Shown: in pieces, positions 1 to 46,842 of the stretch
How positions within the stretch are numbered: position 1 is the stretch's first letter
How the letters are laid out: every line of letters starts with the position of its first letter
DNA from: Pedosphaera sp.
GTDB taxonomy: Bacteria; Verrucomicrobiota; Verrucomicrobiia; Limisphaerales; SIBH01
NCBI GenBank assembly: GCA_031414955.1
Contig: JANOQV010000132.1
Span: 1 to 56,948, forward strand
Direction: 5' to 3'
Length of the DNA: 56,948 nucleotides
Notes under the pieces: model-generated
Told to the model about the DNA's origin: nothing
Databases searched by the model: none
What the model saw: only the letters and a program-made list of their open reading frames with translations
Position numbers and translations under genes: made by a program

Positions 1-139
1 GGGCCGGGGCTTGGGCGCGGGACTGGGTTGACTTGGGGGCGATGCTTTTTTCATGTGACGACACGACAGCCATGTTCTTGTTTTTGCCGGTCGAGGAACC
101 GTGACCACCTCACTTTAAGAACAGTGTCAAGATGCACCC
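1..139 (-). mobile_element. Probable end of an insertion sequence (terminal repeat GGGTGCATCTTGACAC..., possible transposase start running off the window)
   Basis: Minus strand from 139 reads GGGTGCATCTTGACACTGTT, containing a perfect TTGACA, then an ATG at 54 opening MKKASPPSQPSPAPKPRP to the window edge. The plus-strand translation of 1-139 looks non-protein-like, and propeller-like sequence starts abruptly after it. The other end is not visible. Confidence 0.4.
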
Positions 140-26000: not shown

Positions 26001-28287
26001 CGTAGGAAGGTCGGGCCAGCACCAAAGAATGCCCGCCGCCATCGGCCTCGATGGGCCAGGGATATTTGGTGCCGAAGCTCGCATCCAACAACACCTGCCC
26101 GGCCATGCCGTGCAACTTCACGGTGCCGCCCGCGTTGTTCAGTCCGTTCGTGATGATCGGTTGCTCGTCGATGTCGAGGCCGTTGGTCACGCCGTACTCC
26201 AGCACGCCGCTGATACCATAAACCGACTGCACGTCCGCCTTGATCTTGGCCAGCACCAGGAATCCTCCGCCGGGTAAAATCGTGTTGCTCGGGAAGGCGT
26301 AATTCACGTCGCCCGACAAGCGTTGGCCGGTCAAGTCTTCCCAGATGGGAAGGGAATTGTAGATCTCGATGAACTCGACTTGCTTGCCATCGGGACGATC
26401 CTTCGGATGGTAATGGATTTCCGAAATGACCAACCCGGTGCGACGGGAGGAGGCACCGAGCGGCTCGCGGTTGGCCGAGTAAGGCACCACCGTGCCGCCC
26501 ACCGCCGTGCCATAATCGCGGAACCGCGCGGTGGCGGCCTGCCCGCTGGTGCCGCTGGTGACGGCGAAACCGACGAACATGGAAGCCGGCGCAGCCCCGA
26601 GATTCACACTGCCCAGTTGCACCCAACTGCTGCCATCAAAACTGCCGAAGCCGGTGAACACGGTGCCGACCCGCTGCAAGCGCAGCCAGGTGTAAGGATA
26701 ATTCACCGGGAACCAGCCCGCCGTCGTAGCCGCAGCCGCCGTCGTGGCGCGGGACTGAAAGTAGGAACCCATCACGCTCGGCGTGGCCACACTGGCGGCG
26801 AACCGGCTGGTGGCAGTCAGAGTTTCACGCGCCATCAAGCTCGACACGGCCAGGGCGTTGCTTGCCGAAAAGGATTCCACTCGCACCTTGACGTCGAAGT
26901 CGCCGGCGATCTGCTGGTAGCCCAGGGTGAACTGGTCCGACGTCCCAGAAATGTTTGCGCCACTGCCGGTGACATTGAATCCATTGCCCGCTTCCACGAC
27001 CGACCCAGGAAGGCCGGGCGAACCAATGTCCGCGTAAGTGATATTCGCGGCAGTGAAGGAAGCCTGGCTGTTCGCGGTCACGGGATTCGCGGCCGCAGAT
27101 TGATCCGTCACGCCATTGACCGTCACCCTGTAGTTCGTCCCCGGAGTCAGCGGCGTCACCGTGAAGATGACATTAGTCTGCGTGGCATCGAGCACGATGT
27201 TGGAGATGGTCAGCACCCCAAGCGCGCTGGTGATGGAGTAATTCGCCAGATTGGTCGCGCTGGCCAGGAGCAGCCGTTCCGAGAAGGAGGCCAGCACTTG
27301 ATTGTTGCCGGCCTGCGCCAGACTGAGCAGCACCGGAGCCACCCCATCCGCATTCACGGTCAAGGTCGCCACCGTGCTCGTCGCGTAATAGGTGATGCTG
27401 GTGACGACGTTCTGCGCCACGGCCTTGAACTGTAGTCCATTAAAATGCAATGGCGCGGCCGCGATATTGTAAGTCGCCGCCGTCGCCCCAGGAAGCGCCA
27501 CGTCATTCGTGTACCACTGGTAAACCGGAGACGGATTGCCACTCGCGCCCACCGTGAAGCTCGTCGCCTGCTGCAACTCCGCCACCGTCTGGTTCGCGGG
27601 GTGGCCGGTGATGGCCACCGGAATCTGAATGGCCGGCACCGCCGTGGCGGAGAAGTTGTCGATCTGGTACACAGTGTCCGGCGTGCCCGAGCCATTGTCA
27701 TCCGACCAGAGGAGGTAAAGTGACGTGCCGCTGGTCCAGGCGACGCTCAACGTGGCCGTCAACCGCCCCGGGCCGTTCGTCGCGAAGTTGTCGATCAGCA
27801 CCCAGCTCCCCGCCGCGCCGGTCAGGCTGTAGAAGGCCCGGTGCCCATCCACTTCCTCGGCCACCGGAGCGGAGGTGGCCAAATCGTAACCGATCGTCAC
27901 GCTGCTGGCGTTGAGGCCGATATTGTTGACCAAAGTACACATCAGGAGCGTGGCCTGGTTGCCGGTGGGCCGAGTTTGCAGCAACAGCCCGGCTGAACTC
28001 CAGGTCGCCATGCCATTCGCGGCCGGCGGCACCGTGGCGTCTGACACCGTGCTCGTGTTGACGCTGGCGGCGGCGATGGTTTGCACCGCCGCATCGGCGG
28101 CCCCGGCCGCCGTGACGTCCGTACCCGCGCCCGCGACGGAGAACGTGCTCCAGTCCGCAATCGAAGGCTGGAAGTTAAAACTATTGGTGTAGCCCGCGCC
28201 GGTGACCGAAGCCGCCCGCGCGGATGGAGTTGAGCTGCCGACGGCCAGAAGCGCCGGAATCAGGAACAGGAAGCGTAGTTTGTGCAT
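20089..28287 (-). CDS. Giant secreted lamin-tail-domain / CotH-kinase-like protein with Ig-like and lectin-like domains
   Basis: Signal peptide MHKLRFLFLIPALLAVG..ARA. Several (V/I)INE.....D..EF.E(L/I)YN.....VDL.G..L.D lamin-tail repeats. DNGTAGDVVAGDGLYSATI. CotH-like core (LFVNG, LYKIE, GNWDSY...KNAY, WDIDF). C-terminal module ending RYYQLVVLP. Confidence 0.88.
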   Translation of the reverse strand: MHKLRFLFLIPALLAVGSSTPSARAASVTGAGYTNSFNFQPSIADWSTFSVAGAGTDVTAAGAADAAVQTIAAASVNTSTVSDATVPPAANGMATWSSAGLLLQTRPTGNQATLLMCTLVNNIGLNASSVTIGYDLATSAPVAEEVDGHRAFYSLTGAAGSWVLIDNFATNGPGRLTATLSVAWTSGTSLYLLWSDDNGSGTPDTVYQIDNFSATAVPAIQIPVAITGHPANQTVAELQQATSFTVGASGNPSPVYQWYTNDVALPGATAATYNIAAAPLHFNGLQFKAVAQNVVTSITYYATSTVATLTVNADGVAPVLLSLAQAGNNQVLASFSERLLLASATNLANYSITSALGVLTISNIVLDATQTNVIFTVTPLTPGTNYRVTVNGVTDQSAAANPVTANSQASFTAANITYADIGSPGLPGSVVEAGNGFNVTGSGANISGTSDQFTLGYQQIAGDFDVKVRVESFSASNALAVSSLMARETLTATSRFAASVATPSVMGSYFQSRATTAAAATTAGWFPVNYPYTWLRLQRVGTVFTGFGSFDGSSWVQLGSVNLGAAPASMFVGFAVTSGTSGQAATARFRDYGTAVGGTVVPYSANREPLGASSRRTGLVISEIHYHPKDRPDGKQVEFIEIYNSLPIWEDLTGQRLSGDVNYAFPSNTILPGGGFLVLAKIKADVQSVYGISGVLEYGVTNGLDIDEQPIITNGLNNAGGTVKLHGMAGQVLLDASFGTKYPWPIEADGGGHSLVLARPSYGEGSRQAWAASDSVGGSPGRYDPIGSSEPARNVVINEFLAHTDLPLEDGIELYNHGTTPVDISGFWLSDTVTTNKYRIADGTVLAGRGFIAFTATTVPGPLNLGFALSSSGEQIVLVNSNQTRVIDAIGFDGQENGVSSGRYPDGAPRFQRLSALTPGTTNSAPTNSPIVINEMMYNPISGDSDDEFVELYNRGSSAVNLGDWRFTDGIDYTFPKNTMIQPGAYVVVGRNKDQLLANNYTTLNSTNLFGNYDGSLANGGEHVVLSAPDYEVTTNGSGQVLTNVSFRYAMNDVTYSKGGRWGLWSDGGGSSLELIDPRSDTQLAANWADSDETAKSTWTSFEATGSVDDEWTQTHDNIHVYMLGVGEALVDDIEVRPQPGNANIMINGGFETDLSNWTPQGSHDQSSIENVGFTGAKSLHIRGASRGDTGSNKVRSNTGNSFTATFALNTIVTLRAKARWLRGFPEVLLRFHGGGMEAPGRLPVPKNLGTPGAVNSRYQGNSAPAISDVVHSPILPAASAAVVVTARASDPDGLSTLLLRYRLDPSQTFNNVTMVDNGTAGDVVAGDGLYSATIPGQVSGTLAAFHIQAADNAVVKATNLFPANALTRVFPVDSPKRECMIRWGEEQLPGSYSTYHFWITQETIDRWVARVRLNNAGLDATFVYNNFRVIYNLQPQYGGSVWHVGQMVSPVAPSTRVDYVLNFPEDDLLLGQTDFVLNTIGNPSGDTGSDGSAQSEQTTYILFRQMGIHYNYRRYIHLFVNGNRRSTTGGVPFIMEDSQQPNGDAIKEWWPNESEGQLYKIEDRFEYNDAGDAHGGEGNAQLTRTMSPYNGVNQLKMAHYRFMWRKRSVSASESANDYTNLFALVDIISPTTNSAINPLPDYMVKQLSQVADLEQWMRIFCAQHTCGNWDSYGYRRGKNAYTYRPNNSKFGMLTWDIDFTMGVGGDGTGQDIFQVNDPRIAALYATPEIRRMYWRAMRDMTDGPLNNTYLDPILDAKMAAHLANGVTAANAGTVSTIKAYVAGRRAYILTQIPSASFNFTSATNFTSGSNIVTLTGTAPIEIKFFEINGIAYPITWTSQTDWSVRVPVSVTGLNDFAFQGYGRLSNAIPGTARVVSVNYTGVVENPVGNLVFNEIMSNPLVFGAEYVEIFNRATNFTFDLSGWRVNGLDYTFPEGATIGPRGFLVLTKDRVQYANAYGGLVPAFDQFPGGLQTDGETLSLIKPAPTTNDVDLVVDRVRYDGPLPWPDAASGTGSSFQLIDAAQENARVGNWFSSYLPAVYGGGISTPETVYSGWRFVSATGIAGPGAGGNQMRLVINLGNGEINGANVVIDDIVVVVGTNVGVGTNLVRNGDFETGPLLEAVPVTNSWHIGTNYTNTLIVGNPVHGGSGALKVDCLSFGNAQPRVISQLLSPAPLTNAVHNLSFWYYATNLPGNKATNLTVKILNSGPLNVLTNIGVFTTPSNYIPPTLVSPAINSLTPGTANQGTTNLPAFPTLWINELQADNVNGLLDNNGEREPWIEIYNASTSPVSLDGLYLSTTYTNLTSFAIPAGYSIGPTQFMIIICDGEAGESTPAQLHTEFILPSGSGSIALSYLHTNAPRVLDYVNYAGISANRSYGSFPDGQPFDRQEFFYVTAGTNNDGRSGPLVVFINEWMASNTNYLADPADNDNDDWFELYNPSTNSVDLAGYYLTDTLANKFKYLITTNGPHFIPGQGFLLVWADNETGQNVSGGLPRPDLHVNFQLATAGEAIGLFAADGTQIDAITFTNATGNVSEGRYPNGGPLVYHMPTNQTPRASNYVPGIGNNSPVLDPIGGKIVFVNQPLAFTATASDSDGGQTLGFTLDPGAPPGAAIDLNSGAFTWTPGLAGTNLITIRVSDNGSPVLSDSENVQVRVLSLPDFAVPSLVGNELTLTWAATGGRTYQVKYKNALGDLEWTNLGSPLTVESDSLLSINDDISLSPTGQRYYQLVVLP

Positions 28288-29476: not shown

Positions 29477-30208
29477 ATGAACACGGGACGCACGGCGCTG
29501 GCGGTTTTTCAAACGACACATTGGACTCTGGTTCTGGAAGCCGCGCATCCGGATGCCTCTTTCGACAACACCGCCTTCGCCGATCTCTATCTCGCCTACT
29601 GGCCTCCGCTTTACGCTTTCGCCCGGCGGCGCGGACTCTCGCCGGTCGAAACCGAGGACGTCATCCAGGATTTCTTCATGCGCCTCGTGAGCAAGCAGGC
29701 GCTCTCCGGCGTGCGGCGTGATGGCGGTCGCTTCCGCTCCTTCCTGCTCAAGTCGCTCGATAATTTCCTGGCCAACGAATGGCAGCGCGCCCAGGCGCAA
29801 AAGCGCGGTGGAGGCCAGCGCCTGCTTTCGCTCGACGTGGAAGAGGGAGAAGCCCGTTTCGCCCTCGATGCACCGGACGGGGAAACTCCCGAATCCATTT
29901 TTGACAAGCGGTGGGCTTTCACCTTGCTCGAACATGTCGCGGAGCGTTTGTGCGATGAGTACGCCGCGGCGGACAAAGCCGTGCTGTTCGATCAACTCCG
30001 CAGCTCGCTGCAAGGCGACCGCTCCGGGCCGGCCTACGCGACCGTCGCCGCGCAGTGCAGGATGAGCGAAGGCGCGGTGAAGGTGGCCGTGCATCGCCTG
30101 CGACAGCGTTATGGCGAACTGCTGCGGCAAGCCATCGCCCGCACCGTGAGCAGTCCTTCGGAAGTGGACGATGAATTGCGCTACTTGATCAGCGTGGTCG
30201 GACGGTGA
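29477..30208 (+). CDS. ECF sigma factor of the Ser/Thr-kinase-associated type
   Basis: FQTTHWTLV, YW.PLY.F.RR.G...TED..QDFF, GRFRSFLL...NFLANEW, KRGGG, region-4 HTH (MSEGAVKVAVHRLRQRY) and EVDDELRYL. The kinase gene follows, and no anti-sigma gene is adjacent. Confidence 0.92.
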   Translation: MNTGRTALAVFQTTHWTLVLEAAHPDASFDNTAFADLYLAYWPPLYAFARRRGLSPVETEDVIQDFFMRLVSKQALSGVRRDGGRFRSFLLKSLDNFLANEWQRAQAQKRGGGQRLLSLDVEEGEARFALDAPDGETPESIFDKRWAFTLLEHVAERLCDEYAAADKAVLFDQLRSSLQGDRSGPAYATVAAQCRMSEGAVKVAVHRLRQRYGELLRQAIARTVSSPSEVDDELRYLISVVGR

Positions 30209-30213
30209 GTTGG

Positions 30214-30284
30214 AAGGTGGAAAGCCTCGCGCTGCGAGGCGAGTTGGCTCCGGCCTCCGTTCGCAGCGCGAACGGGACCACCTT
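30214..30284. repeat. REP-like doublet, GGTGG...TCGCGCTGCGA family (copy 1)
   Basis: AAGGTGGAAAGCCTCGCGCTGCGAGGC ... CCGTTCGCAGCGCGAACGGGACCACCTT. Closely related copies are at 45424-45488 and 45570-45650, with a single unit at 41875-41901. Confidence 0.75.
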
Positions 30285-30297
30285 GCAGCGTGAACTG

Positions 30298-30329
30298 CTG
30301 TAACCTCGCCGCGATTTTCCTTTGGGAAG
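30298..30329 (+). promoter_or_regulatory. Candidate ECF-sigma promoter upstream of the kinase
   Basis: CTGTAACCT-N13-CTTTGGGAAG, ending 3 nt before the kinase ATG. The same boxes and spacing recur at 35231-35262. Confidence 0.6.
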
Positions 30330-30332
30330 CTT

Positions 30333-34994
<4,662 letters not shown>

Positions 34995-35073
34995 GAAATC
35001 CCCGCGGAGAGCCGTCTCTGACTCAACCCGGTTCGCATTTCCAAGTCGAGCGATGGCAAAACTCCGCAGCGCC

Positions 35074-35138
35074 GCGTTCACGCCGCTTCAGCGTGCGAAT
35101 TGCCATGGGGCTTAGGAACGTCGAAGCGGCGTGAACGC
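35074..35138. repeat. REP-like inverted repeat (16-bp arms)
   Basis: GCGTTCACGCCGCTTC ... GAAGCGGCGTGAACGC downstream of the kinase. Confidence 0.7.
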
Positions 35139-35230
35139 CATGCTCCGCTTGGGTGCGACTCCCCGTGCTGCGTTCCCTGGCTCCCTTCCCACTACACGTT
35201 TGAGGTTCAAAGCCGGTGCGGCAACTCTCT

Positions 35231-35262
35231 CTGTAACCTTCCGCCAAAAAATCTTTGGGAAG
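35231..35262 (+). promoter_or_regulatory. Candidate ECF-sigma promoter upstream of the fibre cluster
   Basis: CTGTAACCT-N13-CTTTGGGAAG, 51 nt before the ATG at 35314. The boxes are identical to those at 30298-30329, while the spacer differs. Confidence 0.6.
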
Positions 35263-35313
35263 AGGTGGGACGCGATCTCGATGGGCCAAACAACCTGAGA
35301 AAGAAACTAAACA

Positions 35314-35796
35314 ATGAAACTCTTGCTGATGACTCTCCTCCTGACGCCGCTGCTCGGCGCGGCGCAACCCGTCCTGTTCGGACATGTGATCGCTGGTGGC
35401 GGCGGCACGAGCACGGGCGGCGTCTATCGCGTCCGAGGCACGGCCGGCCAGGCGCAGGCGGCCACCGTCCGCGGCGGCAGCGTTTCGCTCGCCACCGGCT
35501 TCCGCGCGTTGTTCGACATCATGCCGCCGCGGCTGGCCCCGCCGTTGAGCATCGAGCGGATGGAAACGGGCGTGCGGATTTCATGGCCGCTGGCGGCGGG
35601 GGACTTTGTTCTGGAGGAGACCGAATCCCTCGACACGGTACCCGTGGTCTGGACGGTGGCCACGTATCCTCACCAGACCAACGGCACCTGCCTCTTCATC
35701 ATCATGCCGTTTTCGTCCGTGACCAATTCAATGCTCCGCGCCCAGACCGGTGAATTGATAAACATCCCGGCCAAGAAGGTCGTAAAATTCCGGTGA
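35314..35796 (+). CDS. Small secreted Gly-rich protein, paralog of 44622-45086
   Basis: Signal peptide; IAGGGGTSTGGVY.V.GT.GQ; then LSIER...VRISWP....DFVLE.T..L.....W....QTN.T, shared with the 44622 protein. Divergent C-terminus. Confidence 0.75.
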   Translation: MKLLLMTLLLTPLLGAAQPVLFGHVIAGGGGTSTGGVYRVRGTAGQAQAATVRGGSVSLATGFRALFDIMPPRLAPPLSIERMETGVRISWPLAAGDFVLEETESLDTVPVVWTVATYPHQTNGTCLFIIMPFSSVTNSMLRAQTGELINIPAKKVVKFR

Positions 35797-35889
35797 TGAA
35801 TCGTGAAGCAAGGACGCAATGACATGCACACGATTTTTCCCAACAACGAACCTGTTCCGCAGTTCAATTCCAAACTTCCCAACCAAATT

Positions 35890-38289
35890 ATGAAAATAAA
35901 ACTACGTTCCATCCTCGCCGCACTGGCACTCGCGTCGGGCCTCGGTCGAGCCGTCGCCCAAGGCACGGCGTTCACCTATGAAGGCCGGCTGGACTTCGGG
36001 ATTCCCTCCGCCCCCATCCCCGCCACTGGTCTTTATGATTTCCAATTTCGAGTGTACGACGCCGCGACGCTGGGCTTGCCCCAAGGACCGTTGCAGAGCT
36101 TCGTCGCCGTGCCGGTGACCAATGGCCTGTTCACGGTTCGGCTCGATTTCGGCAGCGGCGTGTTCACCGGACCTGCCCGCTGGCTGGATCTCAAGGTGCA
36201 AACGAATGGGGCGGGAGCTTACACGCAACTCACACCCCGCACCGAACTCACGCCCACGCCTTACGCCATCTTCGCCGGGGGTGCCGATGCGGCGGGCATC
36301 AGTGGAATCATTCCCGATGCGCGGCTTTCGGCAAATATCCAGCGACTGGACAGCGGCACCGTGCCGGACGAGCGGTTAAGTCCCAACATCGCCCGGGCCA
36401 ACCAGGTCTGGCTGCTCAACGGCAATGCGGGCACGGATGCCACCACCAATTTCCTGGGCACCACGGACAACCAGCCGCTAGAACTCCGGGCCAACTACGC
36501 CCGCGTGTTCCGGTTTGAGCCGGACCCCGTCAGCCCGAAACTCATCGGCGGATTCAGCGCCAATTACGCGGCGCCCGGCGCGTTTGGATCGGTGATTGGC
36601 GGCGGCGGAAGTGCGCTCCGCAACAACCGGGTCTATGCCTCGTTCGACACGATCAGCGGAGGCGAGGGAAATTTCATTGAGGCCGGCGCCGACCACTCCG
36701 TCATCGCCGGGGGCGAGGTGAACAGAATTCAGGCGGACGCGGACAACTCGACGGTGGCGGGCGGCTACGGGAACATCGTCCAGACCGACGCCGATTACGC
36801 GACCATCGGCGGCGGGTTCATCAATTTCATCCAGGGCCGTGCCGACCACGCCACCATCTCGGGCGGCAGATTGAACACCATCCGCACCAACGCCGAGCAG
36901 GCAACCATCGGCGGCGGTTACTTGAACAGCATTCAGGCGGACGCGCGTTACTCGACGATCAGCGGCGGCGGCGAAAACCTCATTCAGACAAATTCTTCAG
37001 CCGCGACCATCGGGGGCGGCCAGTACAACCTGATCGAGACTAACGCCACCCACACCACCATTGCCGGCGGCCGGCTGAACATCATTCAGTCCGGCGCCTC
37101 TTACGGAACCGTCGGCGGCGGCTTCCAAAACACCATCCAGTCCAACACCCTCTACGCGTCCATCAGCGGCGGCTCTGGTAACAGCATCAATGCCTACGCA
37201 GAATCCGCGACCATTGGTGGCGGCGCGGTCAACACCATCCAAGAAGGATCCGAATTTGCGTCTATTGGCGGTGGCTCGGGCAACGTGATTCAGGCCAATG
37301 CCAGAGGCGGGACAATCGGCGGCGGCGGGGGGAACCACGTCTGGTTGAACGCCGACTACGCCACCGTCAGCGGCGGCTTCGCCAACAACATCCAGTCCGA
37401 CGCGCTCTCGGCCTCCATCGGGGGCGGCCGTTACAACACCATCCAGTCATCCGGCGAGGGCAGCACCGTCAGCGGCGGCATGAGCAACGTCATCCAAAGC
37501 ATCTCCAGATTTTCCACCATCGGCGGCGGGGCCGGGAACAGCATTTTCGACATAGTCTCCACCGCGACCATTGGCGGCGGGCGGATCAACACGATTGAGT
37601 CCCATGCTTCCGAAGCCACCATCGGCGGCGGCACCAACAACCGCGTCCAGACCTACGCCGTGTCCGCGACCATCGGCGGCGGCATGCAAAACACCATCGA
37701 GACCCAGGCCAGCCAGTCCGTGATCAGCGGCGGCCAACTGAACAAAATCCAATCCGGCGCCCGCGGAGCCACCATTGCCGGCGGTGCGAACAACCTCATC
37801 CACACCAATGCCTACTTCGCCTCCATTCCCGGCGGCTGGCACGCCCGTGCCACCCACCAGGGGCAACTGGCCCACGCCAGCGGACGCTTCGCCACCGACG
37901 GCGACGCGCAAACTTCGACCCACATCCTGCGCCGCCAGACCACGGATGCCACGACCACGGACCTGCTCCTCGACGGTTTCACCTCCACCGAGCTTCTGAC
38001 CATTCCGGCCGCGGCCGCCTGGACGTTCGAGGTTCAAATCGTGGGGCGCACCCAAGGCGGACAGACGGCGGGCTACAATCTCCGGGGTGTGATCGAGAAC
38101 GTCGTCGGCGTGACCGCGCTAGTCGGTACCGTGGATGTGGCCATGACCAAAGAGGACGTGGCCGCTTGGAACGCCACCGCCGTGGCCGACAACATCAACG
38201 ATGCGCTGGCCATCCGCGTCACCGGCGTCGCCGCCACCACCATTCGCTGGGTCGCCACCGTGCGCACCACGGAAGTGATCTTCCCGTGA
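35890..38289 (+). CDS. Secreted tail-fibre-like protein 1 (FTYEGR domain, 17-aa xTIGGGxxNxI repeats, phage-type tip domain)
   Basis: Signal peptide ending AVA-Q; AFTYEGRL..G.YDFQF..YDA...V.VTNGLFTV.LDFG..VFTG..RWL....LTPR..LT.TPYA; GNAGT....NFLGTTDNQPLELR; roughly two dozen 17-aa repeats; C-terminal GDAQ...QTTDATT...IRWVATV. Confidence 0.85.
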   Translation: MKIKLRSILAALALASGLGRAVAQGTAFTYEGRLDFGIPSAPIPATGLYDFQFRVYDAATLGLPQGPLQSFVAVPVTNGLFTVRLDFGSGVFTGPARWLDLKVQTNGAGAYTQLTPRTELTPTPYAIFAGGADAAGISGIIPDARLSANIQRLDSGTVPDERLSPNIARANQVWLLNGNAGTDATTNFLGTTDNQPLELRANYARVFRFEPDPVSPKLIGGFSANYAAPGAFGSVIGGGGSALRNNRVYASFDTISGGEGNFIEAGADHSVIAGGEVNRIQADADNSTVAGGYGNIVQTDADYATIGGGFINFIQGRADHATISGGRLNTIRTNAEQATIGGGYLNSIQADARYSTISGGGENLIQTNSSAATIGGGQYNLIETNATHTTIAGGRLNIIQSGASYGTVGGGFQNTIQSNTLYASISGGSGNSINAYAESATIGGGAVNTIQEGSEFASIGGGSGNVIQANARGGTIGGGGGNHVWLNADYATVSGGFANNIQSDALSASIGGGRYNTIQSSGEGSTVSGGMSNVIQSISRFSTIGGGAGNSIFDIVSTATIGGGRINTIESHASEATIGGGTNNRVQTYAVSATIGGGMQNTIETQASQSVISGGQLNKIQSGARGATIAGGANNLIHTNAYFASIPGGWHARATHQGQLAHASGRFATDGDAQTSTHILRRQTTDATTTDLLLDGFTSTELLTIPAAAAWTFEVQIVGRTQGGQTAGYNLRGVIENVVGVTALVGTVDVAMTKEDVAAWNATAVADNINDALAIRVTGVAATTIRWVATVRTTEVIFP

Positions 38290-38591
38290 GCAGGAAAAAT
38301 CTGGAGGCGCATGGTGGAAGCAGGATCGAAATGCGGGTGTGCTTGCGCGGCGAAGCGGCGGCAGAAAGTAGCCCGCCGCGTCGGCCGCAGGATGGTCGGG
38401 CCAGGCTGCCCCAGCCCCAGCAGGGCGAAAGAACCTTCCCCTTTGGAGCACAGGGCGGTCTGTCGCTCCGCTTCGTCCCGGCGGAATGTATCTCCTTCCG
38501 CACGCGGGCCTTTTTTGCTATCCAATCCGTTGTCAACCCACGACTTCGCCCGGCGGCGCGGTTGGAAAGACAAACTGACCAAAACCACAAT

Positions 38592-41500
38592 ATGAAAAAC
38601 TCACTACGTTCCCTACTGGTTCTCACGATCTGGCTCGCGGCCGTAGGTGCCGCTTCCGCCCAATCCACGGCGTTCACTTATCAAGGCCGGCTCACTCAGG
38701 GCGGCAACGCGACCAGCGGGATTTACGATTTGCAGTTCACAATTTTCGGTTCCAGCAGCGGACAGCCGATTGTCTCCGGGCCAGTGGACGTCGGATCCAC
38801 GGTCGTGAGCAACGGCCTGTTCACCGTCACGCTGGATTTTGGGGCCGGCGTGTTCACGGGTTCGGATCGCTGGCTGGAGATCGGTGTGCGGACCAACGGA
38901 GATCCCAATCCATACACCGTGCTCATCCCAAGGCAGAAAATCACGGCTTCGCCGTACGCCATCACGGCCGGCGGTGTGACGGGTGGCGTGTCGGCGGGGC
39001 AACTGACGGGTTTCATCCTGGCGGGGAACATTGCTTCCGGCAGCATCAGCGGCCCCATGCTCGCGGCGGGCAGCGTTCAAGCCGTGCATCTCGCGAGCAA
39101 CAGCGTGACGACGTCAGCCCTGGCCGATGATGCCGTCACGGCGCAGAAAATACGGAGGATTCCGCAGCCCCAGGTGTTCACCAGTGAATTCAGCGGCAGC
39201 TCGTATGGCCGCGCTTTTGCGCCGCTGGATGCGGACTCTTTTCTGGTCGGCCGGTCGGGCACACAGGCGGTTCAGATCGTGAATATTTCCGGCGCGGTAG
39301 AAGCGACGATCACGCCGCTTTCCATCCCGTCTTTTGTCCCCGTGAGCAATACGTTCGGCGCGGCGGTCGCGGCCATCAGTCCCACCGTCATTGCCGTGGG
39401 AGATTCACAGGCAAACTTCGATGTTGGCATGGTGTTCCTGTTCAATAGTTCCGGTTCATACATTCGCTCCATCCCCAACCCTTCCCCCGGTTTAGGCCTA
39501 AATTTTGGAGACAGTGTGGTGGGGGTCGGTCCCACGCAGTTGCTGGTGGCGGCGTCGCCGCCGCTGGGGTTCGGAGCCGCCGGGGCGGCGTATTTATTTT
39601 CGACCAATGGCACCCGGCTCACCACGTTCACTAATCCGGTTCCGTCCTCGAACGGAGTGTTCGGACACGCCCTCGCGGCGCTCAATCCCACCATGGTGGC
39701 CATTGCGGCCCATCGCCAGGATGGGAACTCCGGCGTGGTTTATCTTTTTAACACGAGCGGACAACTTGTGACGACGTTTCACAATCCGTCCCCGGAGCCG
39801 CTGTTGCGCTTTGGCAACTCGCTGGTGGCCGTCGGCCCCGACCGCCTCCTGATCCAGGAAGCCCCGATCGCCGGGATTGCACGTCCGACCAAAGCCTATT
39901 TGTTCAGCACCAACGGCCAGCTTCTGACCGTGCTGACCAATCCGGTGGGAGCGCAGCCGCCCTTCAGCGCCGAGGTCGGGGTGGGCTACCTGGCGCCGGA
40001 CAAATTGATCTTTTCCGCGCCCGCCCAGCAAGTCGGCGCCTGTTATGTCTTCGACACGAATGGCACGGTGCGGACGGTGTTGACCAATCCTCTGCCGATG
40101 GGCGCGGTGGGCTTTGGCACGATCGTCACCGGCCTCGGGTCGAACTACGTGCTCGCCTCCTCGCTCGGTGGCTCCGCGTCCAGTGGTGACGCCTATCTTT
40201 TCGGCCTCGGCGACGACCAGTTTTTCGCGCCGGGATTCGTGCCTGGCTTGGCCGGCGATTCCGTCCGGTTCAACAGCATCCGCACGGAACACATTGTCAA
40301 TGACACGATCACTGCGGAAAAGATCGGGGCCGGGGCGATTGATGCTGATAAAATTGCCGACGGTGCGGTCACGGCGGCCAAGATCGGCGGAGTTCTCGAC
40401 TCCTCGCAAATTCCCGAACTTGCCGCCTCGAAGATCACAACCGGCAAGCTTCTGGACGCTGTGCTCTCCTCCAATGTCGCTTTGCTCAATGCCAGCCAGA
40501 CCTTCGCCAGCACGAACAGTTTTACAAACGCCGCCAACAGTTTTACCGGCAGCTTCACCGGCAACGGCAGCGGCCTGACCGAACTCAATGCCGTAAACAT
40601 CAGCGGCGGCACGCTCTCGGATTTCCGACTCTCGGCCAACGTCGCACGCCTCAACACCATCCAGACCTTCAACGCCGCGAACACCTTCAACAATGCCGCC
40701 AACAGTTTCACCGGCAACGGCAGCGGCCTGACCGCGCTCAATGCCGCGAACATCAGCAGCGGGACGCTCTCGGATTTCCGACTCCCGGCCAATGTCGCCC
40801 TGCTCAACACGGCCCAAACCTTCACCAGCGACAAAACATTTGGCAGCGGCGTGCAACTTCTCGCCGACATCGCTCCAGCCTCCGCTCCGGGCGTCGCGTT
40901 CAACGGAGACGCCGACACGGGGATTTTTCACCCCGCTGCCAACTATCTGGGCCTGGCCACGGGCGGTGCTGAACGTTTACGGGTCACGGATGCGGGTCTC
41001 GTCGGCATTGGCGAAACCTCACCAGGCGCGCGCTTGGATGTGCGGCAAGCCGCCGATCGCGTCGCACAGTTCAATCGCACCGGCGACGATGGCGTGATTG
41101 TGTATTTCCAGCGCGACGGCTTCAACGAGGGCAGCATCACGGTCGCCGGCAACACCGTCATCTATAACGCCTTCACCGGCTCGCATTACGGCTGGACGGA
41201 CGAGAAGATCGAACGGGGAACGCTGGTCTCCATGACGGGGGAGAACCGCCGGCAGCGGCCCGGCCCGGATGGAGAAATCATTTACGGCGTCGCCGCGACG
41301 CAGACGGCAAACGATTCGCGCTGTCTGGGAGCGTATCTCGGATTGGAAGAACCCAATCGCCCGTCCGGCAACGGCAACCCGCATCAAATTATGTCCGTCG
41401 GCAACGGCGAAATGTGGGTGACGGAAAGCAAATCCGGAAACATCCAGCCCGGCGATTTCCTGATCTCCGCCGCCGTGCCGGGCTGCGCGATGAAGGACGA

Positions 41501-41816
41501 TCCGGCGGCCTTCCCCATCGGCCACATCTGCGCGCGGGCCGCCGAGCCGGTGGACTGGAACGACGTGAAGGCGGATGCGCAGGGCGTGAAGCGCGTCAAG
41601 ATTTCCGTCCTCTTCGAGAGCTTCCAGCGCGACAGCCGGGGCGCTCAGTCCACGGCTCTGGCCCAGGCGCAGCAAAAGCGGATTGATGCGCTGGAGACCG
41701 AAGTAAAATCCCTGCGCGCGACCCAAGACCGGCTGGCCCGGCTGGAAGCGCTGCTGGAGAGGAAATCTCCCGTGGCAACCACGCCCGCCGTCGCGAAGAT
41801 CGGAGGCGCGAAGTGA
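38592..41816 (+). CDS. Secreted tail-fibre-like protein 2 (FTYQGR domain, FG-GAP-like propeller, shaft repeats, peptidase G2/IMC-like C-terminus, coiled coil)
   Basis: Signal peptide ending ASA-Q; the same N-terminal domain; ~7 FG.A.A....YLF.T.G.....TNP repeats; FTGNGSGLT.LNA.NI repeats; ERLRVT..G.VGIG...P; FTGSH...GNGEMWV....GNIQPGD.L....PG.AMK; QQKRIDALE coiled coil. Start at ATG 38592. Confidence 0.85.
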   Translation: MKNSLRSLLVLTIWLAAVGAASAQSTAFTYQGRLTQGGNATSGIYDLQFTIFGSSSGQPIVSGPVDVGSTVVSNGLFTVTLDFGAGVFTGSDRWLEIGVRTNGDPNPYTVLIPRQKITASPYAITAGGVTGGVSAGQLTGFILAGNIASGSISGPMLAAGSVQAVHLASNSVTTSALADDAVTAQKIRRIPQPQVFTSEFSGSSYGRAFAPLDADSFLVGRSGTQAVQIVNISGAVEATITPLSIPSFVPVSNTFGAAVAAISPTVIAVGDSQANFDVGMVFLFNSSGSYIRSIPNPSPGLGLNFGDSVVGVGPTQLLVAASPPLGFGAAGAAYLFSTNGTRLTTFTNPVPSSNGVFGHALAALNPTMVAIAAHRQDGNSGVVYLFNTSGQLVTTFHNPSPEPLLRFGNSLVAVGPDRLLIQEAPIAGIARPTKAYLFSTNGQLLTVLTNPVGAQPPFSAEVGVGYLAPDKLIFSAPAQQVGACYVFDTNGTVRTVLTNPLPMGAVGFGTIVTGLGSNYVLASSLGGSASSGDAYLFGLGDDQFFAPGFVPGLAGDSVRFNSIRTEHIVNDTITAEKIGAGAIDADKIADGAVTAAKIGGVLDSSQIPELAASKITTGKLLDAVLSSNVALLNASQTFASTNSFTNAANSFTGSFTGNGSGLTELNAVNISGGTLSDFRLSANVARLNTIQTFNAANTFNNAANSFTGNGSGLTALNAANISSGTLSDFRLPANVALLNTAQTFTSDKTFGSGVQLLADIAPASAPGVAFNGDADTGIFHPAANYLGLATGGAERLRVTDAGLVGIGETSPGARLDVRQAADRVAQFNRTGDDGVIVYFQRDGFNEGSITVAGNTVIYNAFTGSHYGWTDEKIERGTLVSMTGENRRQRPGPDGEIIYGVAATQTANDSRCLGAYLGLEEPNRPSGNGNPHQIMSVGNGEMWVTESKSGNIQPGDFLISAAVPGCAMKDDPAAFPIGHICARAAEPVDWNDVKADAQGVKRVKISVLFESFQRDSRGAQSTALAQAQQKRIDALETEVKSLRATQDRLARLEALLERKSPVATTPAVAKIGGAK

Positions 41817-41938
41817 AAAGCCGCCTTGAGGAAACATCCGGGACGACCCTGAAAAAATTCCGTGAACCGATAGCGGTGGCTCCGGTCGCGCTGCGACCGG
41901 AAGAGCGGCCCAAAAAACAAACTGACCAACATCATCGT

Positions 41939-44617
41939 ATGAAAAATTCACTCCGTTCCCTGCTGTTACTCGCGACCTGGCTTGCGATAGCGGGTGCCGT
42001 TTCCGCCCAATCCACCGCCTTCACCTACCAGGGCCGCGTGCAGGCCAATGGCGCCGACTTCACCGGCGCCGGCCAGTTCAAGTTCGCACTCGTCATCAGC
42101 ACCAACGCCAGCCGCCAGGCCACCGCCACGGTCACGACCAGCGGCGGCTTCGTCACCATCGTCAATGTCACGGATGGAGGCGCGGGATATGTCTCGGCTC
42201 CAGCAGTCACTGCTGTCGGCGGAGGCGGCGCGGGGGCCGTGCTGACGGCCAATGTTTCCGGCGGCGCGGTGATCAGTATCACTGTCAACAACCCCGGCGG
42301 CGGCTATGTGAGCCTGCCCGCCATCGTCATCGCCCCGCCGCTTGACGCCATTCTTTACACCACCTACTGGAGCAATGACGGCACCAGCGTGAACGGGAGC
42401 GAACCCTCCGCTGCCGTCAGCGTGCCCGTCTCCAATGGACTCTTCACCGTGGTGCTGGGCGGCCCCGGCCTGCCAAATATGCAGGCCATCGGCGCGTCCG
42501 TGTTCGACCAGACCAATCTCCAGATGCGGGTCTGGTTCAATGATGGTGTCAACGGGTTCGCAGCCCTGAGTCCCGTGCAAGCCCTCACGACCACGCCCTA
42601 CGCCAGCCGGGCGCGAGTGGCGGGCAGCGTCAGCGGGACCATCGGTGCGGCCAACATCGCCACGGGCGCGGTCACCTCGCTCCAGATTCTAGACGGGAGC
42701 ATCACCGGCGGGGACATCGCCGACGGCACCATCGGCGCGGCGGATGTGAACGCCGCGAGTTTCAACAACACCTTCTGGCGGATCGGCGGCAACACGAATG
42801 CGACCGGCACGCCCTTCCTCGGCACCCTGGACTTCCGGCCCATGGAAATAAAAGTCGGCAATCTGCGCGTGCTGCGGTTGGAACCGGATTTTGAAAGCCC
42901 GAACATCATCTGGGGATACCGGGATAATTTCGTGGACTCGGCCTACGGCGCGACGATTTCCGGCGGCGGAACCTTGGGCCTGAGCAACTACATCGCGCCT
43001 TCGGGCTACGCCACCATTGGCGGCGGCCTGGGCAACGCCATCCAGAGCGTGGCGCAAAATGCCACCATCGGCGGAGGTGGATTGAATGTCATCCAGAGCG
43101 ACGCCCAAAACGCGAACATTGACGGTGGCTGGGCCAACACCGTTCTCGCGAGCGCGTGGAACGCGACGGTGGGCGGCGGCTTGCTCAACACGGCCGGAGC
43201 GGTCAGTGCGACGGTGGGTGGCGGGCAGAACAACACCGCCGGCGCGACCAGCGCGACCATCGGCGGCGGCACGAACAACCTGATTCGGAGCGGGGCTGTG
43301 GCGGCGGTCATCAGCGGCGGCCGGCAGAACGACATTGGCACCAACTCGACTTACAGCGCGATTGGCGGGGGACGTTCCAACGCCGTGGCCTCATCCTCCC
43401 CGGCGAGCACCGTCGCCGGAGGGCACTTCAACAGCATTGGCACCAACTCCGGTCAGAGCGTCATCGGCGGGGGCAGCACCAACAGCATCGCGAACAATGC
43501 CGCGCTCAGCGTCATCGCCGGAGGTCTGAGCAACTACATCGGCTCGAACGCATTTTTCAGTGCCATCGGGGGCGGGTGGCAGAACGGCATTCAGAACAAC
43601 GCCCGTTACGGGACCATCCCTGGCGGCACCAATAACATCATTCGGTACGGTGCCTTTGGTGCCGCCATCGGCGGAGGATCAGATAACAGTATTGGTACCA
43701 ACGCAGGCTACAGCACCATCGCCGGAGGTAATGATAACTACGTTGCCAATTCCTATAACGCGACGATCGCCGGCGGAAATGGTAACGACATCGGCAAGAC
43801 CTCAGATTCCAGCGCCATTGGAGGAGGCTACGGCAACTCCATTGCCGATGTTTCCTATGCAAGCACTATCGGCGGAGGTCACATCAACTACATAGATGCC
43901 AACTCAAAACAAAGCACCATCGGCGGGGGATATTTCAACCGCATTGGCACTAACTCACCGGCCAGCACCATCGGCGGAGGAACGAATAACCAGATCGCCC
44001 GCAATGCCGCCTATGCGATGATTCCGGGCGGCGACTACAACTTCGCCACGAACCGCGCCTTTGCCGCCGGGTCGCATGCCAGAGCCAGTCACACCGGAGC
44101 TTTTGTCTGGGCGGACTCACAAGATCTCTTCTTCAGTTCCACCGCGAACAACGAAGTGAGCTTCCGTTGCCAGGGTGGTGTGCGCTTCACCAGCGGCAGC
44201 GGCTCGGCCAACCAGACCGTGTCGTGGATACCCGGAACGGGCGCGTGGAGTTTTACCAGCGACCGCGAAACCAAGGAGGCGCTCGTGCCGGTCGAAGGCC
44301 GCGCGGTTTTGGAACGTGTAGCGCGCCTGCCCATCAGCGAATGGAATTACAAAGGCTATCCGCAGCGGCACATCGGACCCATGGCGCAGGATTTCCACGC
44401 TGCCTTCCCGCTCAACACCAACGACACCACCCTCAACACCGCCGACCTCCACGGCGTGGCCCTGGCCGCCATCCAGGGCTTGAACCAGAAGCTGGAAGAC
44501 CGGGCGAACCGCCTGGAAAAAGAATTCCACGAGACCAGCGCGGAGAACGCGGCCTTGAAGCAGCGCCTGACCCAACTGGAAGCCCTCGTCTCCAAGCTCG
44601 CCAACGGAAAGGAATAA
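41939..44617 (+). CDS. Secreted tail-fibre-like protein 3 with C-terminal peptidase S74-type intramolecular chaperone domain
   Basis: Signal peptide nearly identical to the 38592 gene; AFTYQGR; xTIGGGxxN repeats; GAFVWADS; TSDRETK...VLERVARLPISEWNYK...HIGPMAQDF.AAF...GVALAAIQGL followed by a coiled coil. Start at ATG 41939. Confidence 0.9.
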   Translation: MKNSLRSLLLLATWLAIAGAVSAQSTAFTYQGRVQANGADFTGAGQFKFALVISTNASRQATATVTTSGGFVTIVNVTDGGAGYVSAPAVTAVGGGGAGAVLTANVSGGAVISITVNNPGGGYVSLPAIVIAPPLDAILYTTYWSNDGTSVNGSEPSAAVSVPVSNGLFTVVLGGPGLPNMQAIGASVFDQTNLQMRVWFNDGVNGFAALSPVQALTTTPYASRARVAGSVSGTIGAANIATGAVTSLQILDGSITGGDIADGTIGAADVNAASFNNTFWRIGGNTNATGTPFLGTLDFRPMEIKVGNLRVLRLEPDFESPNIIWGYRDNFVDSAYGATISGGGTLGLSNYIAPSGYATIGGGLGNAIQSVAQNATIGGGGLNVIQSDAQNANIDGGWANTVLASAWNATVGGGLLNTAGAVSATVGGGQNNTAGATSATIGGGTNNLIRSGAVAAVISGGRQNDIGTNSTYSAIGGGRSNAVASSSPASTVAGGHFNSIGTNSGQSVIGGGSTNSIANNAALSVIAGGLSNYIGSNAFFSAIGGGWQNGIQNNARYGTIPGGTNNIIRYGAFGAAIGGGSDNSIGTNAGYSTIAGGNDNYVANSYNATIAGGNGNDIGKTSDSSAIGGGYGNSIADVSYASTIGGGHINYIDANSKQSTIGGGYFNRIGTNSPASTIGGGTNNQIARNAAYAMIPGGDYNFATNRAFAAGSHARASHTGAFVWADSQDLFFSSTANNEVSFRCQGGVRFTSGSGSANQTVSWIPGTGAWSFTSDRETKEALVPVEGRAVLERVARLPISEWNYKGYPQRHIGPMAQDFHAAFPLNTNDTTLNTADLHGVALAAIQGLNQKLEDRANRLEKEFHETSAENAALKQRLTQLEALVSKLANGKE

Positions 44618-44621
44618 CGCC

Positions 44622-45086
44622 ATGAAACACAAAACTCTCCCCGCCCTCGTGTTCCTGCTGTCCCTGGGACTCGCGGCCCGCGCGCAGGTCTATTCCATCA
44701 ACTGGCACACCATCGACGGCGGCGGCGGGACAAGCACGGGCGGCGTGTATTCCGTCAGCGGCACTATCGGCCAGCCGGACGCGGGCGTGCCGATGGCCGG
44801 CGGGAATTATTCGCTCGTGGGCGGCTTCTGGGGCGTGGTCTCGGCCCTCCAGACACCCGGCGCACCGCTCCTCTCGGTGCAGCGGATCGGTGGCAGCGTG
44901 CGCGTCTTCTGGCCGTGGCCCGCCACGGACTTCGTGCTCGACCAGACGGCGGCGTTGACGTCCCCGCCCGCCGCCATCGGGTGGGCGCAGGTTCCGCTGG
45001 CCGCATATCAAACCAACGCCACGCACATCTCCATCACCATCCCCACGTCCACGGGAAGCAAATTCTACCGCCTGCGCAGGCCGTGA
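44622..45086 (+). CDS. Small secreted Gly-rich protein (YSINW.TIDGGGG...GGFW) with C-terminal FYRL module
   Basis: Signal peptide ending ARA-Q; YSINWHTIDGGGGTSTGGVYSVSGTIGQPDAG.....GG.YSL.GGFW; ends KFYRLRRP. Starts 4 nt after the fibre 3 stop. Confidence 0.85.
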   Translation: MKHKTLPALVFLLSLGLAARAQVYSINWHTIDGGGGTSTGGVYSVSGTIGQPDAGVPMAGGNYSLVGGFWGVVSALQTPGAPLLSVQRIGGSVRVFWPWPATDFVLDQTAALTSPPAAIGWAQVPLAAYQTNATHISITIPTSTGSKFYRLRRP

Positions 45087-45314
45087 ACGTGGGTTTGCCG
45101 AGCTGAAACAGCCTGTGAGTCACTCACCCCGCTCTCCAGGGTCGTGGTGCCGTAGAGCGGCACTTCCCCGCTGACGAAATACGTGGTGTCGCCCCGGAAG
45201 GTAAAATTGGTTTCGCCCGCCTCGGGCACCAGTTCATAGTCGAGCACGAAGAGCGGAGCGGCATTGACTCCCTCGCCACCCAATCGAGTCAGGCTCATCC
45301 CTGGGCCTTGCCGC

Positions 45315-45384
45315 ACCTCCTCTCCCGCCCTTCGGGCACCCTCTCCTCCACTCCGAGTGGAGGAGAGGGATGGGGAGAGGAGGT
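45315..45384. repeat. Palindromic element (CCTCTCCC...GGGAGAGG type) inside an ORF
   Basis: ACCTCCTCTCCC-GCCCTTCGGGC-ACCCTCTCCTCCACTCCGAGTGGAGGAGAGGG-ATG-GGGAGAGGAGGT nested hairpins. Confidence 0.75.
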
Positions 45385-45423
45385 TCACGGGCAGGGAGGC
45401 CCGGCCACCCGGCGCTCCGGCCG

Positions 45424-45650
45424 GGGTGGAGAGCCTCGCGCTCCGAGGCGAGTTGGGAGTTCCGCTCGCAGCGCGAGCGGTGCCACCTGGGCGCTGGATG
45501 GCGGCGCGCTGCGCCGTCTTGTTACCGGTGCCGGCGGCGGCCAGCGGCGGGAGCAACCGAATGGCCGGCAGGTGGCTAGACTCGCGCTGCGAGGCCAGGA
45601 GGCTGGGCGCAGGGTTGGGAACACCGCTCGCAGCGCGAGCGGGACTACCT
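45424..45650. repeat. Two REP-like doublets of the GGTGG...TCGCGCTGCGA family (copies 2 and 3)
   Basis: 45424-45488 and 45570-45650 align with 30214-30284; copy 2 also shares the CGAGGCGAGTTGG spacer. Confidence 0.75.
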
Positions 45651-46842
45651 AAATCCACCGCCGCCGTGGTCTGGTTCAAGGTGTTGGTGTTGAGCGGCAG
45701 TTCCCGCAAGGCCGGCGCGGCCTGCCGATGCTCGATGCTCTCAATGAGGATACGCCTCGACTGGATCACTTCGAGCGACTTGCCCACGGGATGCGGCAAG
45801 TTGGCGAAGCCATTGGTGCGCCGTGCCGTGCTGAACGCTTTGCCGTGGGCCAGCTTCATTCGCCCTGAAAAATTCAAATCCGCATCGAGAAAATCCGGCG
45901 CGACCATGCTGGCGAGCTTTTGGGGGTTGGTTTCGCGGCGGATGAATTTGGCCTGTCCCGTCGGAGCACTGCCCTGCACCTGCTCGGTCAACATCTCCAA
46001 CCGCGAATCGGGCGAAAGCCCGAGGCTGGCCGGGTCCGGCGGACGCTCATGCAGCAGCACGTCGTGGGTCAGCCCCGAGGCCGTATTGCGAAGGCGAATC
46101 GAGGCTTTGATGCGCGTGAAGCAATTGCTGTAGATGATTTCATTCGAGTCCGTGAGCCAGCCCACCGCATTCGTCACTGCGTCGAGCAAGACCGAGCGGC
46201 CATCCACCGGATCAAAATAATCCAGGCCGAGCGGCTGAAACGTGACCGACTGGCCGCCCGGTTGAATGACCTTGATGCCCTCGCCCAGCCAGAGGTCCGC
46301 CGGCACGACCACCTGGTGCGTGGTGCCCGTGGCCTCCGCGCCCGAAGTGGTGATTTGAAAGGACGGATCGGCCGACACGAACTGTCCGTCCGCGCGACGC
46401 ACGTTCAAGCCCGCGCCCAGCTCGACATAGGCATTGGTCCGCGCGTGGACCTTGCCCGTGACGGTGTTGGTGCGCAGCGTCACGGCCTGCCAGTGAGTCT
46501 GGTTGGCCGAGCGGGAGGCCGCGTGCCACGGTGTCCGCACCAGTGGCGAGTAGCGCGAATCGGCGGCGGTCCCGACCACGCCGGCCAGGGCCAGCACTGC
46601 GGCCATCGCCACGGCGGCCAGGCGAGATTTTCGGGGCGGCCCAGAATAAAGCGGAGCGGGTTTGGTTTTCATGGGGAGTAGTGCTGCACAGAACCTTCGC
46701 CGACGAGTCTCGCCGTTTGGACAACAATGAGTCGGAGGTTCATTGGTCACAGGGTTTAGCCACAGCTTTGTCGGCGCAACTCCGCATGTTTATCAAAACG
46801 AGACAGGCGAACGGCCGGCTTATTGTGGATCGTGCCAGGGAA

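Follow-up and report, generated by a model that had tools for sequence, protein, structure and literature searches.

A small secreted module as candidate adaptor for surface fibres of the mosaic adhesive trimer kind in Pedosphaera sp.

The stretch of DNA analysed here, referred to as the window, comprises 56,948 nucleotides of contig JANOQV010000132.1 (C132) from the 6.5 Mb genome of Pedosphaera sp. It contains a cassette of seven genes (29477-45086) in which an extracytoplasmic function (ECF) sigma factor and a Ser/Thr kinase are followed by a small secreted protein (small A), three fibres (F1, F2, and F3), and a second small secreted protein (small B). Small A and small B are each composed of a signal peptide, a Gly-rich module of about 50 residues (the S module), and a C-terminal domain of about 70 residues. 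We consider it probable that these small proteins are adaptors, in which the S module would dock the N-terminal domain (N-domain) of the fibres and the C-terminal domain would serve as a tag that exports or anchors the likely trimeric fibre. Judged from sequence, the fibres belong to the mosaic adhesive trimer (MAT) kind as a distant subfamily and not to a wholly new family, and the adaptor is the part that appears new.

Small proteins and fibres of the cassette

Small B (44622-45086, + strand) begins 4 nucleotides past the stop codon of F3. It has a signal peptide, a canonical S module (44688-44846), and a C-terminal domain ending in FYRL (44847-45083), and is the proposed fibre adaptor. Small A (35314-35796, + strand) has a signal peptide, a more divergent S module (35365-35520), and a variant C-terminal domain that carries an insertion of about 17 residues and ends in ...KKVVKFR. 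An earlier note on this DNA had given the small protein an FYRL tail, which holds for small B and not for small A. The S module belongs to no Pfam family, its profile matched no sequence of the PDB, the ESM Atlas returned no usable match, and a search of plasmids with S gave no match. In a monomer model of the small protein, the S module has a predicted local distance difference test (pLDDT) score below 50 despite its high conservation, while the tail folds well. Low confidence combined with high conservation would be expected if the segment became ordered only on binding a partner.

The tail domain is not confined to the small proteins. Its iterated profile terminates about 191 open reading frames (ORFs) of the genome with a median length of 960 residues, although this count is approximate because the search did not converge (44, 80, 146, and 198 matches over the iterations); the seed profile has 48 matching stretches. 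All 10 S genes of the genome end in this domain and none of its 12 fibres do, and it is present on none of the 91 fibre ORFs in the loci fetched from elsewhere. The earlier suggestion that the small partner ends in a C-terminal domain common among secreted proteins is supported, with up to about 190 ORFs carrying it. The adaptor reading follows in part from this distribution, since the fibres lack the common C-terminal domain while the small proteins carry it. The FYRL-ending domain stands mostly on long extracellular proteins, including the window ORF at 28-8136; it matches no Pfam or NCBIfam model and is likely a sorting signal.

The three fibres are encoded on the + strand and share an N-domain that follows the signal peptide directly. 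F1 (35890 (ATG)-38289) has a MAT-like N-domain of the FTYEG form (35956-36306), a shaft of 17-residue Gly-rich repeats with 24 motif matches, and a non-S74 tip. F2 (38592 (ATG)-41816) has a MAT-like N-domain (38658-38999), a repeat region, a phage-fibre-like shaft, a tip weakly related to the GKAM class (residues 943-984 match the GKAM tip profile with an E-value of 1e-5), and a coiled-coil-like end. F3 (41939 (ATG)-44617) has a MAT-like N-domain interrupted by an inserted domain of about 90 residues (about 42044-42332), a shaft of the same 17-residue repeats with 21 motif matches, and an S74 chaperone domain (44258-44410). The description of a shared N-domain with varied tips is thus upheld, with the F3 copy split by the insertion. 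Other parts of that description apply to single fibres. Pfam S74 (PF13884) is matched by F3 and not by F1 or F2. A phage-fibre-type shaft is found in F2, the only one of the three with PHROG tail-fibre matches; F1 has no PHROG match, and the PHROG virion-structural matches of F3 are confined to its insertion. No Pfam or NCBIfam match to the C-terminal membrane anchor barrel of trimeric autotransporters was found in F1-F3, which agrees with the earlier note.

The relation of the N-domain to MAT fibres is seen with the profile NF053851 (Bdello_MAT_N), which is matched by 54 of 90 N-domain homologues at E ≤ 0.1 (best 2.4e-7) and by 7 of the 11 N-domain copies of the genome (best E 1.9e-7). A six-frame search of the genome with this profile at E ≤ 1 returned six matches, all on fibre N-domains. 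The profile cut-off of 60 bits is not reached in the genome, where the best score is 22.7 bits and F3 scores 16 bits. The N-domain, roughly 110 residues in length, is modelled as a seven-strand beta-sandwich with a pLDDT of 83. A fold search of this model against 48,161 chains gave generic immunoglobulin (Ig) and fibronectin type III-like matches only, with a best Z of 7.4 and none at 8 or above, and indicates neither a family nor a new fold. Fibre copies are intact at nine loci of the genome, and fibres fetched from elsewhere fall into several tip classes, both S74 and non-S74.

All seven ORFs of the cassette are intact and lie on the + strand in the order previously reported, with intergenic gaps of 124, 319, 93, 302, 122, and 4 nucleotides. 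Five Sec signal peptides had also been claimed. Signal-peptide-like starts can be read in all five proteins downstream of the kinase, although the N-terminus of F1 falls below the hydropathy threshold used.

Co-occurrence with fibres and exchange of tags

Within the genome, 8 of the 10 S genes lie within 8 kb of a fibre. Random points do so in 2.3% of cases, and among the 181 other genes with the tail domain only 7 do, so the proximity is not due to chance. Of the two exceptions, one is at a contig end (C172) and the other, on C269, is chimeric; two fibre loci lack an S gene, and both are at contig ends. The chimeric copy (L009:3784-4359) is an ORF in which an S module and tail are fused to the N-terminus of a different type of ECF sigma factor, and is either a deletion scar or a misassembly. 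At a further locus (L008:4355-8024, C89) a fibre, an M23 peptidase, and an S gene form one run.

The earlier note had expected the small protein and the fibre N-domain to co-occur and to be adjacent, and both were found. A sample of 60 further genomes from the order gave matches to both S and the N-domain in 38, to S only in none, to the N-domain only in 8, and to neither in 14. Match counts of S and N-domain per genome are correlated (rho 0.80), with the caveat that related genomes are not independent. S loci from GTDB genomes were fetched with up to 8 kb on each side; a fibre is present in 53 of 79, and in 27 of the 33 where the flanks are full. The fibres are co-oriented with S in 81 of 82 cases. 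In 17 further regions, S stands beside the N-domain in 10 and the N-domain is found without S in 2.

The nearest S-gene loci are mostly from Verrucomicrobiota, several of them Limisphaerales. Outside the order the family is patchy. A sample of 150 genomes from the phylum contained 6 with matches, and 80 other Planctomycetota genomes yielded 3 weak matches. With the one divergent S at L107 as query, only two homologues were retrieved. Eleven loci (L012, L019, L020, L030, L031, L034, L036, L052, L065, L079, and L082) come from records titled Bifidobacterium or Bifidobacteriaceae; their genes are of Verrucomicrobiota type and the records are probably mislabelled.

The strongest argument for the adaptor reading is that the tag joined to the S module changes by lineage. 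In all three Phycisphaerae/Planctomycetales loci, the S gene downstream of the fibre has a dockerin-like tail. On plasmid pHAU01 of Herpetosiphon aurantiacus, an unannotated S ORF directly follows the fibre Haur_5099 and has a YLP-box-like end resembling that of the next secreted gene. This ORF is at L090:11951-12250 (CP000876.1, about 128430-128730), and in Haur_5099 the S74-like domain is followed by a hydrophobic stretch that resembles a membrane segment. The S profile matched 11,548 cluster representatives (50% identity) at E ≤ 0.001. Among 149 of the best 150 of these, sorted by rough patterns, the tails comprise 41 dockerin-like, 31 FYRL, 4 YLP-type, 1 IFxDGFE, 16 short or cut, and 56 other or truncated. 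Tags linked to S that score above their cut-offs are PF00404 and NF041540 (dockerins), NF050076 (YLP-box), and NF041766, in proteins seen without genomic context. One distant relative (P0354), likewise seen without genomic context, joins S to a type IX secretion system (T9SS) type A tail with a TIGR04183 score of 44.4 bits against a cut-off of 23. A metagenome scan with the T9SS-type S gave six loci, of which one is real (L127) and five are flagellar false positives. At L127, S lies right after the cut end of an S74-type fibre that is truncated before its N-domain, and has a tail that we take to be FlgD/T9SS-like. The module is also found at the N-terminus of multi-domain surface proteins of 800-3,500 residues, or as two to three tandem copies (L110, L112-L115, and L118; P0001, P0131, and P0200), and one S protein has five repeats of the tail domain.

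A second association involves the opposite end of the fibres. Fibres with a GKAM..LQ tip are directly followed by a gene with a common tail of about 70 residues in 15 of 19 cases, compared with 1 of 24 for S74 fibres and 0 of 27 for others, and a GKAM fibre lies within 7 kb upstream of 21 of the 22 tail genes; 11 of the tail genes counted had served as seeds for the tail profile. Eight tail genes were scanned with Pfam. Six contain an M6, S8, or trypsin-like protease (one below the gathering score) and two contain none. The GKAM tip and this protease tail form a candidate tip-docking pair for enzyme display. The cassette itself has no such tail gene. The succession of GKAM fibre and tailed secreted enzyme, usually with an S gene next, is exemplified by L003:8020-12976 (C23) and recurs at L013, L018, L020, L023, L027, L030, L033, L035, L038, L043-L045, L055, L065, L072, L084, and L085. 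The peptidase of the run on C89 has a tail that differs from the GKAM-linked one.

Proposed mechanism, regulation, and alternative readings

In the proposed mechanism, all five proteins downstream of the kinase would be exported by Sec. The fibres would then trimerize and fold from the tip, with self-cleavage of S74 in F3, a step established for MAT fibres with S74. The S module would bind the beta-sandwich of the N-domain, probably by adding strands, with up to three S modules per trimer. The FYRL domain would pass the complex to the sorting machinery of the lineage, and the varied tips would provide varied binding, as is established for MAT fibres. The upstream ECF-kinase pair probably switches on this copy of the cassette, as an optional and reusable part.

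The sigma factor (29477-30208, + strand) matches PF04542, PF07638, and TIGR02937 above their cut-offs and is of a kinase-associated type repeated in the genome. The kinase (30333-34994, + strand), delimited by Pfam and hydropathy, contains a Pkinase domain at residues 58-292, one transmembrane segment (hydrophobic residues 381-399), WD40 propellers, and a C-terminal GH43_C2/DUF1349 domain that is concanavalin A (ConA)-like. The first alternative, which we regard as unlikely, makes this pair obligatory and the fibres the specific output of a dedicated signalling system. Such a system would account for the position of 4 of the 9 fibre loci of the genome within 9 kb of a sigma factor of this type, compared with 6.1% of random points, and for the recurrence of the order sigma-kinase-fibre-S in another family (L120) and in L073. 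Two of the four loci are paralogous copies, however, and 23 of the 27 ORFs matching this sigma type have no fibre nearby, in a genome with 63 kinases. Elsewhere, a kinase or ECF sigma factor is present in the fetched flanks of 7 of 53 fibre-holding loci and the remaining 46 show neither gene, although these flanks are short (up to 8 kb). Several other sigma-kinase pairs precede unrelated secreted-protein genes. The pair is a known, repeated module and an optional neighbour of fibre loci, and the earlier claim that it is a defining part of the system does not stand.

Control of this cassette copy by the pair is plausible. A candidate ECF-type promoter (35225-35265, + strand), consisting of TGTAAC, 16 nucleotides, and TTTGGGAAG, was identified by sequence and genome scan and is offered as a lead only. 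The motif occurs at 3 of 12 sigma-kinase pairs and at 0 of 39 other kinases, a circular comparison because the pattern was drawn from those three. A scan for sigma-70 promoters and terminators gave no excess over shuffled sequences. The ConA-like domain is the only feature that may point to induction by a glycan.

The sigma factor has an 87% identical paralogue on contig C123, where an 81% identical paralogue of small A precedes an F1-like fibre. This paralogous cassette (L001, C123:34600-48200) has a different kinase and two or three inserted genes on the opposite strand, then the small A-like gene and the fibre. The N-domain of that fibre is 82% identical, its shaft and tip are different, and the promoter-like stretch is present twice. 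Covariation between the two partners (FTYEG with TGFR) was considered and rejected. It is limited to the window and the C123 paralogue, and L079 pairs FTYEG with GGFW, so that it represents a single event.

The next alternative, also improbable, is that the S module does not serve as a lasting anchor and acts on the N-domain during export only, either as a chaperone for folding or escort or as a cap that assembles by itself. This is compatible with the lack of structure of S as a monomer, and the ratio of about 2.5 N-domains per S (229 and 90 matches over the 60 genomes) fits reuse. A lasting mount agrees better with the finding that S is fused both with tags of the surface-sorting type and with large multi-domain extracellular proteins (800-3,500 residues).

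Ranked behind the chaperone, and doubtful, is a reading in which S proteins and fibres belong to a single surface structure and share their regulation, but are brought together by a third component, such as an outer-membrane platform. Orphan S genes and genomes with the N-domain only would be explained by such a component, as would the lack of S-N fusions. S and fibre alone nevertheless recur in Verrucomicrobiota, Planctomycetota, and Chloroflexota, despite the different envelopes and tags of these phyla, and no third conserved gene is needed.

Several of these observations, together with others, weigh against the small proteins being adaptors. A fibre is lacking near 6 of the 33 S loci with full flanks, and S is found without an N-domain in 5 of the 17 further regions. 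None of those 17 regions, several of which were picked to find one, contains a fusion of S and N-domain in a single ORF. Among the eight genomes with an N-domain and no detectable S, five were re-searched and most of their N-domain matches are weak or partial; genome G157 has a strong N-domain match and no S match. The low pLDDT of the S module could also reflect a homo-oligomer or a truly disordered linker. A Foldseek search with small B returned no match at E ≤ 0.001, and only its genomic distribution suggests a sorting role for the FYRL domain.

An origin of the cassette from prophage, tailocin, or contractile-injection leftovers, to which the PHROG tail-fibre and virion-structural matches of F2 and F3 and the S74 domain might point, is highly improbable given the signal peptides, the GC content similar to that of the flanks, the intact copies at nine loci, the absence of any match when 50,697 phage records were searched with the N-domain of F2, and the absence of an S relative in an IMG/VR pattern scan (0 of 55 candidates). 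The last two results indicate a cellular system, and together with the signal peptides they support the earlier view of a cell-encoded, non-phage fibre system. The reported absence of capsid and terminase genes agrees with the PHROG scan of 14 window proteins, in which no such family was matched (the window has 87 raw ORFs of at least 150 residues).

Two further ORFs of the window lie on the − strand. An ORF resembling a secreted protein (45065-46750) converges on small B; its end is apparently truncated and it has no Pfam, NCBIfam, or PHROG match. Divergent from the cassette, at 20089-28287, is a gene for a secreted protein of 2,732 residues with lamin-tail domains, a CotH kinase domain, and a choice-of-anchor X domain.

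The adaptor reading can be extended to other lineages, and we put this forward tentatively, as a possibility that falls short of an even chance. The S module would be a universal socket for MAT-type fibres, fused to the surface-sorting tag of each lineage (FYRL, dockerin, YLP-box, or T9SS) or to the tip subunit of the Pam pilus discussed below. The GKAM tip and protease tail would be a second plug and socket that displays enzymes at the far end, and together they would form a modular surface display across phyla. The S module as adaptor would also explain how trimeric proteins, with C-termini occupied by folding chaperones, are secreted by way of C-terminal tags. An undescribed, likely sorting domain is also indicated, carried in this single Verrucomicrobiota genome by well over 100 proteins.

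Comparison with known systems

Kinase-associated ECF groups are known, and the accessible text of Casas-Pastor et al. 2021 (PMC7826278) lists ECF43, ECF59-62, ECF217, ECF267, and ECF283. The cassette resembles these groups in having an ECF sigma factor gene followed by a Ser/Thr kinase gene and no anti-sigma gene. The likeness is one of gene arrangement, and in this genome such pairs precede many different secreted-protein genes.

Substrates of the T9SS are many secreted proteins that share a C-terminal beta domain. The FYRL-tail proteins are alike in that a C-terminal domain is common to many secreted proteins, as it is in those with TIGR04183. The FYRL domain of small B has no Foldseek match, and neither small A nor small B has a T9SS match in Pfam or NCBIfam.

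Matches of S proteins to the PamT profile NF058579 fall at consistent positions in its N-terminal third (to about position 80 of 241). The profile is matched by 10 of 43 S proteins, by 22 of 28 in a second set whose choice favoured proteins with such matches (best E 4.1e-9), and by 6 of 88 S-only pieces (best 5.9e-5). The sole match in the genome at E ≤ 1 is an S gene, and the Gly-rich F1 and F3 are not matched. The S proteins do not correspond to full-length PamT, their highest score being 36 bits where the cut-off is 240. One weak match to NF058581 was found among 90 N-domains (E 0.017). In the accessible part of their preprint, Troman et al. place PamT by prediction at the tip of the Pam pilus of Candidate Phyla Radiation (CPR) bacteria and describe it only as a truncated Ig domain; a tail-fibre-like gene is conserved beside the pam operons, and host recognition is left open (PMC13278184). 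PamT and the S module thus have N-terminal homology in common. They differ in setting, since PamT is a truncated Ig domain within a Pam operon, whereas the seven cassette proteins have no NCBIfam match to the chaperones PamC/D, the pilins PamA/B/E, or the anchor PamR. Possibly, the pilus tip carries a fibre of the MAT type that is held there by PamT.

The closest comparison is with the MAT fibres of Bdellovibrio bacteriovorus. In the accessible text of Caulton et al. 2024, the N-domain is expected to bind an unidentified surface element, and Table S3 includes MATs of bacteria of the Planctomycetes-Verrucomicrobia-Chlamydiae (PVC) and Fibrobacteres-Chlorobi-Bacteroidetes (FCB) groups (PMC10769870). 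The S module bears on two questions left open in the accessible texts, the mounting of MAT fibres (PMC10769870) and the host grip of the Pam pilus (PMC13278184). No description of an adaptor partner for a MAT-type N-domain was found in the papers on mosaic adhesive trimers that the literature searches reached, subscription papers being outside this scope. The earlier label of an undescribed system stands for the small-protein partner, which was not found described, and does not stand for the N-domain, which maps, below the cut-off, to the described MAT family. MAT and cassette fibres share a signal peptide, a conserved beta-rich N-domain, a phage-like shaft, S74 and non-S74 tips, and many paralogues per genome. 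They are unlike in that the cassette genome scores below the NF053851 cut-off, and in that MAT fibres serve to grab prey in Bdellovibrio whereas no evidence of predation was seen here. For MAT fibres, the accessible text describes no partner gene (PMC10769870), while the cassette fibres have two small candidate partner proteins.

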